Shown here one piece after another: positions 27,001 to 33,000 of a stretch of DNA of 34,435 bases. This DNA comes from a virus (Duplodnaviria; Heunggongvirae; Uroviricota; Caudoviricetes): the IMG/VR virus record IMGVR_UViG_2529293069_000011. One strand, written 5' to 3'. Position numbers: made by a program. Numbering within the stretch: position 1 is the stretch's first letter; every line of letters begins with the position of its first letter.

Positions 27001-30000
27001 CACTCCTTAAAAATTAGGTTCGTGCTCATCTTTCCTTCCCGTTCTTCCTTGGTAGCAAACCGGTAATACACCGTTCGCCAGACCTTACCTTCGATAACCA
27101 GAAGACCTGCCCGTGCCATTTTAGCCGCGGCCTGATTTATGCTGGTTACTGTTGCGCCTGTTAACGCGGCAACGTCCGGCGCACAGAAGCTATTATGCGT
27201 CCCCAGGTAATGAATAATTGCCTCTTTGCCCGTCATACACTTGCTCCTTTCAGTCCGAACTTAGCTTTGAGTTCTGCGATCTTCGCCAGAGCCTGAACAC
27301 GATTTAGAGGTCTGCCGCCCATGACAGGAAGTTGTTTTACTGGTTCAGGTATCGTCTCACCACGGTTAATTCTCGCAGTCATATGGACAAGCTCATCTGC
27401 GGCCTTACGGCGTAATTCCGCATCAGTAAGCGCATTGGCCCGCATGTTCTGATACAGGTTGGTAACCAGCCAGTAGTGCGCGTTTGATTTCCACGGATAA
27501 GACTCCGCATCCGGATACAGGCCTCGCTTCCGGCAATACTCGTAAACCATATCAACCAGCTCGCTGACGTTTGGCAGTCCGGCGATAACGGATGCTTCTT
27601 CCCGGCACCATGCAACAAACTGCCCGGGTGATGGCAGAAATGGTCGATTCTGCCGACGGGCTACGCGCATTCCTGCGTTAACCTGTTCCATTGTGGTGAT
27701 CCCGTTTTCCCGGAAAGCCAGAACCCACTGGCGGCGGATTTCATTCAGTTCGTTCTGGTCCCGGTTAGCCAGACTCGCCGGGAAAGTTGCCAGTAACTGG
27801 CTGAACACACCGTTGATGATCTGCGCTACCTGTTGTACCTGCGGCTTTTCGTCGTACTGTTCCGGCATGTTGTTGGCGATTCGACGCATCTGCTCACGGT
27901 CAAAGTTAACCATCTGTGCGGCGATGTTTTTCATAAATCCACCCCGTAAATCCAGTCAGTGTTTGTCAGGTCGAGTTTTGGTTTGCTGGCTGTCACGCCT
28001 GCCTGTTGCTTGTTACGGTTGATTTCGAGCTGGGTCCACTTGTCGCGGAGTTTGGCCGGACTCAGCACGTTACCGGACCAGAAGTTGTCCTGGCAGGCCC
28101 AGCGGAAAAGCACACACATATCGCGGTGGTTACGTCCGTCACGTTCACGCATCAGGCGGATATCGTTAGCCCACCCAGCAAAATTCGGTTTTCTGGCTGA
28201 TGGCGCGATAGTCTTCACCATGTCAAACATCCACTCTGCGGCGGTCAGGTCTTCTGCTGTTCCCCACTTGCTGCCGCTCTGAATTGCAGCATCCGGTTTA
28301 ACCACAGAAAGATCGTTTTCTGGCTGGTCAGAGGATTCGCCAGAATTCTCGGACGAATAATCTTTTCTTTTTTCTTTTGTAATAGTGTCTTTTGTGTCCC
28401 CCTGTTTTGAGGGATAGCAATCCCCTAATTTGAGGGATGTTTTATCCCTCGTTTTAGGGGATTTTCCCTCGTTTTGAGGGATGTCCCTCATTTTAGGGGA
28501 ACCTCCCTCGTTTTGAGGGATGCACCATTCTGAGATGTTTTTATTTGGTCCAAACATGCCGCCTTGCTGCTTGATAATATTCATTCTGACGAGTTCTAAC
28601 TTGGCTTCATTGCACCGTTTGACAGGTAACTTTGTAATCTCGCTAAGTTGAGAATCGGTGATTCTGTCCATTGGTTTATTCCACCCATAGGTTTTACGCA
28701 GAATGGCAAGCAGCACTTTAAACTGTCGCTTGGTCAGATCTGCGCCTGAATAAGCCTCAATCAGCATATTTGATAGTCTGGCGTAACCATCATCGAGATC
28801 TGCCACATTACGCTCCTGTTCGGCAAAGTTACCTCTGCCGAAGTTGAGTATTTTTGCTGTATTTGTCATAATGACTCCTGTGGATTGATCCAGTAATTCC
28901 CTCAGAATTGCATATCAATTTGCTTAGAGTCCCCGGCGGCCACCGGGGATTTTTTCTTTGTGATTTCATCAAGCGCATACTTAAAAGCCCTGCTAATCGG
29001 ACTGATGTCTGATGCCATTCCGAAAGCACACAAGACCGAAGCAATAAATCTCCAGTCCGTTCTGCTTATCTTCGATTCATGACAGCCAATCATCTTTGCC
29101 AGACCGCGCTGGGTAAGCGTTGACAGGTTGATGAGTAAATCTGTTTCTGCGCGATCAATTTCTCGCTGTGTTAGCTTGCTGTAACTTGCTTGTGCCATTT
29201 CTTAAGATTTCCAATAGTGAATAGTTAGTTGAAAGGTATGCGTGGAAACGCATGTAGCCTTAGTTGGTCAGATATATTGGGACTCGCTTTGTCAGCGACG
29301 TAGGACGAATGTCCATTGTGAAAATAGCGGTGTTACTTATGCAGCCGATGCTCTACGCGATACGAACACTAGGTTTTCCTTTTTCACAGGTTTATAACCC
29401 GTGAAATTACGAGTAGCTTCTTCGATTGCATTCGCTTTATCAGGGGAAGCTCTTCGAAATCCATATGCAATCTGGTCAAGATAGCCAACTGAAGTTTTCG
29501 CTAATGCGGCGAGTCGCTTCCATTCCTCACTAGAAGCCTCTTTTCGCCAGCGTAGTAGTTCATTACTCATTAGTGCCTCCGTTTATCACACAGAATAACT
29601 TTACCATTTTGATAAATCAACCGCAATGTAAATTTATCATATTGCGTATTTATCCATTTGCTAAATAGAGGGAAAATTGTGAGATGGAAAACAAAGATAT
29701 TCGCAAATCGAATCTGGCGTTTTTGCTAGATGAGCATAAAAAAATCGCGGGTAACACTAATGCAAGCTTTGCCGATAAGCTTGGGGTTAGCCCTTCTCAA
29801 CTCACGCAAGTCTCCGGTGAAAAAAGCACTCGAAACATAGGGGATAAACTAGCAAGAAAATTTGAAGCCGCGCTTGGGTTACCTAATGGGTGGCTTGATT
29901 TGGTACATGATGTAACACCAATTGCATCATGCTCAGATTCTTTAACTTTTGTCGGTCAGGTAAGAAAAGGGTTAGTGCGCGTGGTTGGTGAGGCAATTCT

Positions 30001-33000
30001 TGGTGTTGATGGTGCCATCGAGATGACCGAAGAGCGCGATGGGTGGCTCAAAATTTATAGCGATGATCCAGATGCCTTTGGTCTTCGTGTGAAAGGAGAC
30101 AGCATGTGGCCCAGAATAAAATCAGGAGAATATGTACTCATTGAGCCTAACACCAAAGTATTCCCGGGTGATGAGGTGTTTGTCAGAACCGTTGAAGGAC
30201 ACAACATGATTAAGGTTCTTGGCTATGACAGAGATGGAGAATACCAATTTACAAGCATTAACCAGGATCACAGGCCTATAACGTTGCCTTATCATCAAGT
30301 AGCAAAGGTGGAGTATGTGGCTGGTATTCTGAAGCAATCTCGCCATCTGGATGACATCGAGGCAAGGGAGTGGCTGAAAAGTTCGTGACTTCATCGTCAC
30401 ATAGCTGATAGCCAGTGGCCTGAAGAGACGTTTGGGTGATAGGAAGTAAGTTTTATGTTGACGGCACAGTCAACTTGGCATAGATTAATTAAACCAAGCC
30501 CAGCCCCGTTCGCAGACAATTGTTAATATCTGCATAACGGCTCTGGGCTATTTTTTTTGGGACTCTTATGAAGAAAGCAGCAATTTTAATTGATGCGGGT
30601 TTTTCATGCAGCGTGTTCATGCTACGCATCGTAAACACTTCGCCGAGCATGAACTGACTGGTGGGAAGATCGAAAAAAAGCAAGCCTAGAGGAAAAAACA
30701 ATAGCGGTAAACGCAGGTATGGAAACACTCAAGCTGAGTCTGCAAAGAAACATCAAAGAAATAAACGATAATCCCATCAACCCGGCCACCGAGCCGGGTT
30801 TTCTTTGCCTCACGATCCCCCCACCTAAAAAACATAACCAATTGTATTTATTGAAAAATTGATAGATACAACTTGCTAAACAACGCAATCCAGATCTCCC
30901 TCAAATCTCTTTATTTATCCTGTCGAATTCCTACAACAAAATAAAACACCATAAGAATCAATACGATATTTGAAAACCAAGAGAATTTATCATTTTGCTA
31001 TTGCCATTAATTTATCATTCCGATAAAGTTCACCCATCAGCAGGACGCACTACTCACCATGGCGGTGAATATACAACGATTCGAATATGAATCTACGGCG
31101 CTGACAAAGCGCAATAACCAAAGTGAACTTTGGGGTGTGGTGAAGGGTTCATGGACGGGAATATGTCGCACGTAAAGCGGCGAGGCCTGCGGGACTATTG
31201 CCGAATTGAAGTAGGCCGAAACAGGTCGAAATGGGTCTCCCACCTACCACACCACCAAAGTTCATCAGGAGGTCTATATGACACGCAGAACTCAGTTCAA
31301 AGGCAATTCACGTTCTCGTCGTCGTGAGCGTTTAAAGGCAAAGGCATTAGCTAACGGCGTGCTGGCCCGCGAAGAAGCAATAAGTTCAGAAGTATTACAC
31401 CGCCCTACTCTAAGCAGAGCGCAGATTCAGGCTAAAGGTACTCACGAAACGCCTGAGCGCATAGAAGACGCTAAGCCAATTAAGTTCATGGCACAGGACG
31501 TGATCTGGCAACAGAAAGAATACAGACGCAATCTGGAGCGAGCGGCCATTGTGTACGCGAATGAGTTTGGACATAAGCAACCAGAAACTGGTGTATGTCT
31601 TCCAAACGTAGCTCTTTACGCGGCAGGCTACCGGAAATCAAAACAACTGACAGCAAGATGACTTGTGTTGGTCGCCAGAAAATGAAATTAGGCAGCAAAC
31701 CACTTATTTGAGGTGAGATATGACAAAATCATGGAGCGTACCTTTTCCTGAATCAGAAACTGAACATGATGGAATGCCTGTTTTCTGGAGATTCCAGGCG
31801 ACAGTTGAAGAAGATGGGATAAAAATATTCGCACTTCAATATATAGCTTTTCATCAGACAGAGCATTATGCATGGTTGGTTCCTGCGCATTGGATTGTTA
31901 ATTTTAAACCAGCACCAAATCAGTGGTTACAGGAATGGAAACAAAAGAGAAATAGATATGCAATTAAGAAAGTAGCAAAAAATGCAGAAAGATCTTTTGC
32001 ATTCCCAACGAAGAAACTTGCCATTGAAAGTTTATTGCGCCGGAAGAAATACCATTTAATGAGAATCAAACAAGATTTGGCTGTTGTATCAACTCTTGTT
32101 GATGGGATGAAGAATATTGATACATCAATACCAGATATTGAATATAACTTTGGACACAACCAAGAAACAGAAAATTGGGTATTTTATTAGTACGAATAAG
32201 CACTGTGTATTCATTCCAGCGAGTGAATACACGGAGCAATGTCGCTCGTAACTAAACAGGAGCCGACTTGTTCTGATTATTGGAAATCTTCTTTGCCCTC
32301 CAGTGTGAGGGCCTTTTTATATGCATACCAATAACGCTTCACTCGAGGCGTTTTTCGTTATGTATAAATAAGGAGCACACCATGCAATATGCCATTGCAG
32401 GGTGGCCTGTTGCTGGCTGCCCTTCCGAATCTTTACTTGAGCGAATCACCCGTAAATTACGTGACGGATGGAAACGCCTTATCGACATACTTAATCAGCC
32501 AGGAGTTCCAAAAAATGGATAAAACACTTATGGCTATCCAGACTAAATTCACTATCGCCACTTTTATTGGCGATGAAAAGATGTTTCGTGAAGCCGTCGA
32601 CGCTTATAAAAAATGGATATTAATACAGAAACTGAGATCAAGCAAAAGCATTCACTACCCCCCTTTCCTGTTTTCCTAATCAGCCTGGCATTTCGCGGGC
32701 GATATTTTCACAGCCATTTTCAGGAGTTCAGCCATGAACGCTTATTACATTCAGGATCGTCTTGAGGCTCAGAGCTGGGAGCGTCACTACCAGCAGATCG
32801 CCCGTGAAGAGAAAGAGGCAGAACTGGCAGACGACATGGAAAAAGGCCTGCCCCAGCACCTGTTTGAATCGCTATGCATCGATCATTTGCAACGCCACGG
32901 GGCCAGCAAAAAAGCCATTACCCGTGCGTTTGATGACGATGTTGAGTTTCAGGAGCGCATGGCAGAACACATCCGGTACATGGTTGAAACCATTGCTCAC

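Follow-up and report, generated by a model that had tools for sequence, protein, structure and literature searches.

Genes, promoters and candidate operators

We examined a 34,435-nucleotide stretch of DNA from a virus of the Caudoviricetes (IMG/VR virus record IMGVR_UViG_2529293069_000011; this whole stretch is referred to as the window), in which a set of 17-bp sites built on the dyad TTTATC-N5-GATAAA lies between the repressor gene cI and cro and again upstream of the antiterminator gene N. These sites are candidate operators of the immunity region, with one cluster in the right operator region (OR) and one in the left operator region (OL). The genes, promoters and sites that concern us are listed below in map order, with the names given to the sites in database record GQ499358.

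29337..29570, − strand: cro, 77 amino acids (aa); PHROG 35; annotated as Cro in AU5Stx1, ST2-8624 and BP-4795
29582-29598: OR0, TTTATCACACAGAATAA; 2 mismatches; a fourth site, on the promoter-distal side, in the stretch from the PR −10 to the cro Shine-Dalgarno sequence; "OR0" in GQ499358
29598..29626, − strand: putative PR, TTGCGG-17-TAAAGT with TG at −15/−14, directed towards cro; placed by alignment to PL
29600-29616: OR1, TTTACCATTTTGATAAA; 1 mismatch; over the PR −10; "OR1" in GQ499358; same in H-19B
29625-29641: OR2 as annotated in GQ499358; register uncertain, with alternatives up to 29649
29649-29665: OR3, TTTATCCATTTGCTAAA; 1 mismatch; over the −35 and spacer of the putative PRM; "OR3" in GQ499358; same in H-19B
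29672-29677, + strand: putative PRM −10, GAAAAT, 6 nt before the cI ATG
29684..30388, + strand: cI, encoding the repressor (234 aa); helix-turn-helix (HTH) at the N terminus, S24 autocleavage domain at the C terminus; Pfam, PHROG 4
30954-30970: OL3, AGAATCAATACGATATT; weak site, 32 bp from OL2; in GQ499358; same in H-19B
30986-31002: OL2, TTTATCATTTTGCTATT; centre 25 bp from OL1; the PL −35 begins with its final two T; in GQ499358; same in H-19B
31001-31029, + strand: PL, TTGCCA-17-TAAAGT, directed towards N; found by consensus scan; −35 TTGxxx and −10 conserved in relatives
31011-31027: OL1, TTTATCATTCCGATAAA; perfect dyad, 12/12 half-site positions; right half over the PL −10; "OL1" in GQ499358; same in H-19B
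31278..31661, + strand: N antiterminator, first gene of the PL operon; Pfam N_peptide, E 9.8e-16

The original prediction had drawn attention to three of these sites, at 31011-31027, 29600-29616 and 29649-29665, and all three are present at those positions. As had been said, the first is perfectly symmetric, and it is the sole perfect 6-N5-6 inverted repeat found in the OL area, while the two copies in the cI-cro gap are near-symmetric with one mismatch each. The prediction was thus right about OL1, OR1 and OR3 but fell short of the annotated set, which comprises seven sites and also includes OR0, OR2, OL2 and OL3. The cI-cro gap of 113 bp (29571-29683) holds four sites, where at least three imperfect dyads are expected of a lambdoid region, and the second cluster expected of such a region is formed by OL1-3 at 30954-31027, over PL and with OL1 251 bp upstream of the N start.

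We searched the whole window for the dyad. Allowing up to one mismatch, there are 4 matches compared to 0.15 expected, a count reached by none of 100 shuffles, and three of the four lie in the two regulatory gaps (cI-cro and upstream of N), so the motif does not occur at similar frequency outside regulatory regions. Allowing up to two mismatches, there are 7 matches compared to 1.51 expected. The hexamer TTTATC by itself occurs 43 times in the window compared to ~20 expected, and 8 of these copies are within the ~230 bp of OR and OL. The only match with up to one mismatch outside the regulatory gaps, at 19874-19890, was not taken as an operator; it is inside a metallophosphatase coding gene. 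We also left uncounted a TTTATC half-site at 30914-30919 (within TTTATCCTGTCGAATTC, 30914-30930), 40 bp upstream of OL3, which is identical in H-19B, overlaps an EcoRI palindrome and is not conserved in the cross-genus relatives, from which it is absent.

The sites overlap the early promoters. OL1 covers the spacer and −10 of PL. Read on the opposite strand, the OR1 region is TTGCGGTTGATTTATCAAAATGGTAAAGT, which aligns base for base with the PL sequence TTGCCATTAATTTATCATTCCGATAAAGT, and on this alignment we place PR at 29626..29598. With PR so placed, transcription would start near 29591 with a leader of ~21 nt to cro, and OR0 would lie over the start region.

Comparison with H-19B, Shiga toxin phages and lambda

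To a large extent the immunity region is that of phage H-19B (AF034975.3). The CI proteins are identical at 234/234 residues (AAD04644 as translated from AF034975.3), and Cro is identical at 76/77, the difference being A48R; the neighbouring proteins are also close, with 94/98 residues identical in cII, 309/312 in O, 229/233 in P and 125/127 in N. The OR gap is identical at 111/113 positions, with substitutions at 29596 in the right half of OR0 and at 29620 beside the PR −35. The 17-mers of OL1, OL2, OL3, OR1, OR2 and OR3 are the same as in H-19B and OR0 is one base off, its right half being GAACAA in H-19B and in ST2-8624, unlike in the window. Because CI and the operators match AF034975, and Cro is in essence the same protein, the window carries imm H-19B as judged by sequence.

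The sites have also been annotated before in related phages. GQ499358 is the ST2-8624 immunity region, carries the comment "immunity region; similar to bacteriophage H19-B" and annotates seven repressor binding sites (OL1-3 and OR0-3), and KU238070 annotates oR1-3. For H-19B itself, a review citing Shi & Friedman 2001 gives four operator sites in OR (PMC8065619). The window is 100% identical to the Shiga toxin (Stx) phage AU5Stx1, an Stx1 phage, over 29200-31300. More broadly, cI, cro and OR are common to BP-4795, ST2-8624, AU5Stx1 and phage mEp506 at 97.6-100% identity, they also occur in many Stx1a phages, and the module is present in 216 of 5426 complete E. coli genomes (~4%). The H-19B operators and repressor binding are reportedly the subject of Shi & Friedman, Mol Microbiol 2001.

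From these comparisons we hold with high confidence that the 17-bp sites are operators of a lambdoid immunity region matching H-19B almost base for base. The proposal that the motif represents the immunity operators therefore stands, on the strength of its position in the cI-cro gap and upstream of N, its overlap with promoter hexamers, the conservation of site positions and the repressor-site annotation in GQ499358. By the same sequence evidence the immunity region is the already known H-19B type, so the suggestion of a distinct immunity type holds in that it is unlike lambda but not in that it would be new.

Gene content between cI and OL varies among these phages. H-19B carries ~1.4 kb of extra DNA there that the window lacks; BP-4795 and ST2-8624 have an HTH regulator and a HigB-type toxin in this position, and mEp506 has HicAB, whereas the window and AU5Stx1 have none of these. 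In the window the interval (30389-31010) has no sizeable gene. It contains a terminator-like hairpin at 30779-30800, which is followed by ~120 bp with 87% similarity to the end of lambda rexB and its terminator region.

The layout resembles that of lambda, with divergent cI and cro, several 17-bp dyads covering PR/PRM and PL, and OL upstream of N, but the window OR has the extra site OR0. The specificity appears to be different from that of lambda, as had been predicted. CI is similar to lambda CI in the S24 domain only, Cro had no similarity to lambda Cro in direct comparison, and no lambda-type operator (TATCACCGCCAGTGGTA family) was found at up to 3 mismatches, so the region does not qualify as imm lambda. 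The operator of phage 434 is the 14-bp ACAA-N6-TTGT and that of P22 is 18 bp long; inspecting 29571-29683 by eye, we found no ACAA-N6-TTGT.

With phage 933W the relationship is closer. A CI of the BP-4795/H-19B type is reported to share its C-terminal half with 933W CI (PMC3430580; PMC3202840), and it is known from the literature that the two repressors are 69% identical overall and differ in the N-terminal DNA-binding half (PMC3430580). Since the N-terminal half is unlike that of 933W, the operator specificity should be unlike that of 933W as well. The 933W repressor binds non-cooperatively (PMC3202840), and by analogy this may apply to the window CI too; 933W has three OR sites and two OL sites (PMC8065619).

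This immunity region is joined to lambda replication genes, as had been noticed, with P 98% and O 95% identical to the lambda proteins. The same mosaic of this immunity with lambda-type replication has been described for BP-4795 (PMC3430580). In the iteron region (28400-28520), O has a 13-aa insertion compared to lambda O, and the annotation of AU5Stx1 gives six ori iterons here compared to four in lambda.

Relatives in other genera and the register of OR2

More distant relatives were collected by scanning genome contigs with an alignment of the CI N-terminal domain; a protein search with the 92-aa N-terminal domain gave only three E. coli fragments. Eight loci were compared, namely the window and seven others: Klebsiella phage KO-TP1 and loci from Pantoea, Phytobacter, Enterobacter (two), Citrobacter and Photorhabdus. 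The latter six were found at 49-65% identity in the CI N-terminal domain, and a homologous 77-aa Cro is encoded in all seven relatives. A CI of the SfV type (41% identity) was left out because its operators are different. The annotated KO-TP1 repressor (L004 2426-3178) starts, at L004 2426, inside its own OR; when aligned with its relatives, the gene appears to begin instead with the ATG at L004 2501 (MENKEI...).

Perfect 6-N5-6 palindromes are found exactly at the OR1 and OL1 positions in 7/7 relatives. In every locus the distance from OL1 upstream to OL2 is 25 bp, and OL2 reads TTTAKC-N5-GCTATT in 8/8; for the six Enterobacteriaceae loci the next interval, from OL2 upstream to OL3, measures 33 bp, with TTAATC-N5-GCTAAA at the OL3 place in the relatives. 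Operators at conserved positions are thus seen across all eight related immunity regions, although OR0 is not present in the seven cross-genus relatives.

Within this common layout the half-sites come in two types. In the KO-TP1-type regions (Klebsiella, Enterobacter, Citrobacter, Pantoea, Phytobacter), six loci in all, the positions and spacings of the OR and OL sites are the same but the half-sites are TTTAGC/GCTAAA (G-type); in Photorhabdus they are TTTATC/GATAAA, as in the window (T-type). The change from T to G is found together at OR1, OL1, OL2 and OR2, while the promoter hexamers are unchanged. Nearly all loci have a hybrid OR3, TTTATC-N5-GCTAAA, which is thus a single mismatch from either specificity. 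The same architecture with half-sites changed in concert at the strong sites supports the operator reading, and it fits a natural specificity switch across the Enterobacterales through position 5 of the half-site.

The promoters are conserved in the same set. The GCAA core of the PR −35 (29623-29626) is invariant in the eight loci. So are A2, A5 and T6 of the PRM −10 (nAnnAT) and its 6-nt distance to the cI ATG, and this invariance suggests that the cI mRNA is leaderless like that of lambda. A second rightward candidate, TTAGCA-17-TATGAT (29664..29636), was rejected as the main PR, since the G-type relatives have lost its −10 and the allele described next has a weakened one, and the PL-like TTGCGG-17-TAAAGT was preferred.

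A natural variant within E. coli gives a finer view of OR. In the allele of E. coli O103 RM8385, CI is the same except for K123N, and there are 13 substitutions in the 113-bp OR. None of the 13 falls in the half-sites of OR1 or OR3 or in the TTTATC of OR0 and OR2 (hypergeometric p = 0.005, calculated post hoc), and the OR1 and OR3 sites are unaltered. Three of them destroy the right half of OR0.

OR2 has been given three registers: 29625-29641 in GQ499358, 29628-29644 in KU238070, and 29633-29649 (TTTATCATATTGCGTAT) from our comparative data. The annotated register 29625-29641 has a dyad of its own and a place relative to its promoter that mirrors OL2, but it matches the consensus half-sites at only (2, 2) of 12 positions (left, right), compared to (6, 2) for 29633-29649. 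The latter shares one base pair with OR3. Its left hexamer (29633-29638) is invariant in the eight loci except at position 5, which tracks the T or G operator type of each locus. In RM8385 this hexamer is intact, the substitutions being in the spacer and weak half of 29633-29649, and three fall inside 29625-29641. Finally, 29633-29649 is centred near −43 of the putative PRM. By these three lines (the T/G switch of the left half, the RM8385 substitutions and the centre near −43), the comparative data favour OR2 at 29633-29649 over the annotated 29625-29641. That OR2 is mis-registered in the public annotation, the real site being a strong and a weak half-site at 29633-29649, is nevertheless a tentative proposal that we regard as possible but somewhat doubtful. 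In lambda the OR sites are spaced 24/23 bp apart. If the proposal is correct, the distances would be 33 bp between OR1 and OR2 and 16 bp between OR2 and OR3, unlike in lambda, and such spacing would suit a repressor with the 933W-type C-terminal domain, reported as non-cooperative.

Alternative readings, expected regulation and the wider prophage

If the sites are the operators of CI, a dimer of the repressor, through its N-terminal helix-turn-helix and with its LexA-like S24 domain at the C terminus, would recognise TTTATC-N5-GATAAA. Because OL1 and OR1 lie on the TAAAGT −10 elements of PL and PR, bound repressor would block both leftward early transcription (N) and rightward early transcription (cro-cII-O-P), with OR0, over the PR start region, as a possible extra block. 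OR2, upstream of PRM, would be the likely activating site, and OR3, over the PRM −35 and spacer, would shut off cI at high repressor level. CI and Cro of lambdoid phages act at common operators, and Cro is expected at the same sites here. The operator sequence would then set the specificity of superinfection immunity, in a module that appears to have recombined with lambda-type O and P.

A different possibility is that CI recognises something else and that these sites chiefly bind another protein, such as a nucleoid protein of the host or Cro by itself. No single residue of the CI recognition helix or of Cro tracks the T or G operator type among the compared loci, and in the G-type Pantoea locus, whose operators differ, Cro shares its HTH stretch (TSVGYLDQIAYGFRRASP) with the window Cro. 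We nevertheless regard this as very unlikely, because the arrangement, in which three to four dyads cover PR/PRM and another three cover PL, is the canonical lambdoid CI/Cro layout, and the database records, by reference to H-19B work, call these repressor binding sites. Even less can be said for a hitherto undescribed type of immunity specificity. A search of the accessible literature did not turn up the exact 17-mer, there is no confident Pfam HTH family, and a sequence search of the PDB gave only weak pseudoazurin matches that we take as chance and no solved structure of a relative; but an identical CI with operators that are the same or nearly so in AF034975, sites already annotated in GQ499358 and KU238070, and a module shared with BP-4795, ST2-8624, AU5Stx1, mEp506, many Stx1a phages and the 216 E. 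coli genomes refute it, and we give it next to no weight. That the sites are chance AT-rich symmetry or plain promoter elements (−10-like or UP-like tracts) without a dedicated binding protein has virtually no chance of being correct, for although they are AT-rich, lie over −10/−35 hexamers and contain a hexamer over-represented in the window, the full dyad far exceeds expectation, dyads are found only beside repressor genes, and half-sites that switch from T to G together while the promoter hexamers stay indicate a change of specificity and not promoter drift.

Some points do weigh against the reading of the sites as CI operators with the promoters as placed. The G-type relatives are closely related to one another, so one or two independent events may be enough to account for the covariation of half-sites. 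GQ499358 and KU238070 disagree on site registers by 2-3 bp, and database operator annotations may in part be positional guesses. PR as placed matches 7/12 consensus positions and was missed by a 9/12 consensus scan, which flagged TTAGCA-17-TATGAT as another rightward candidate. The HTH_3 match of CI in Pfam is weak (E 0.0036, below the cutoff); CI also matches Pfam Peptidase_S24 (E 3.8e-16) and the repressor families PHROG 4, 5736 and 12107.

The rest of the early region occupies, with the immunity genes, the last 8 kb of the window, inverted relative to the usual lambda map, and N is followed by the cIII thermoregulator element and then bet and exo. The genes and elements of this region not listed above are as follows.

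27233-27934, − strand: P
27931-28869, − strand: O, with iterons
28902-29198, − strand: cII
29284-29298, − strand: boxB-like hairpin between cro and cII
31098-31112, + strand: boxB-like hairpin downstream of PL
32369-32427, + strand: lambda cIII thermoregulator element, Rfam 88.5 bits

The two hairpins, GCGCTGACAAAGCGC (31098-31112) and TCGCTGACAAAGCGA (29284-29298), form a matching pair and are presumably nutL and nutR for an N of the H-19B type; lambda boxA (CGCTCTTA) was not found near either of them. Right after the N stop codon, at 31669-31711, one frame reads CVGRQKMKLGSKPLI*, which we take to resemble the C-terminal end of phage 21 N, and this segment may be a recombination scar of an N-gene swap.

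Outside the early region, the head and tail genes (1-15500) are 97-98% identical to those of the non-Stx lambda-like siphoviruses mEp460, phi458 and PhiR55_1, unlike those of the short-tailed Stx phages that are the usual carriers of this immunity region. The combination of siphovirus-type head and tail genes with Stx-phage immunity makes the prophage a mosaic. At 18475-19434 (+ strand), opposite in orientation to the neighbouring nin-region genes, is a gene for a 319-aa outer-membrane protein of the LpxR family (Pfam E 6.8e-40), which resembles a moron and is sited in the region that holds stx in Stx phages.

For annotation, the value of the result is that this prophage has H-19B immunity, and the current understanding of such immunity is unchanged by it. 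Judging from the shared repressor and operators, the prophage is expected to be homoimmune with H-19B, BP-4795, ST2-8624 and many Stx1a phages, and by analogy its early promoters are expected to be under control as described for H-19B. The register of OR2 is a point of interest to workers on H-19B-type switches, and the comparative set, in which either TTTATC or TTTAGC is found within the same architecture, could be used as a small natural experiment in the co-evolution of repressor and operator.

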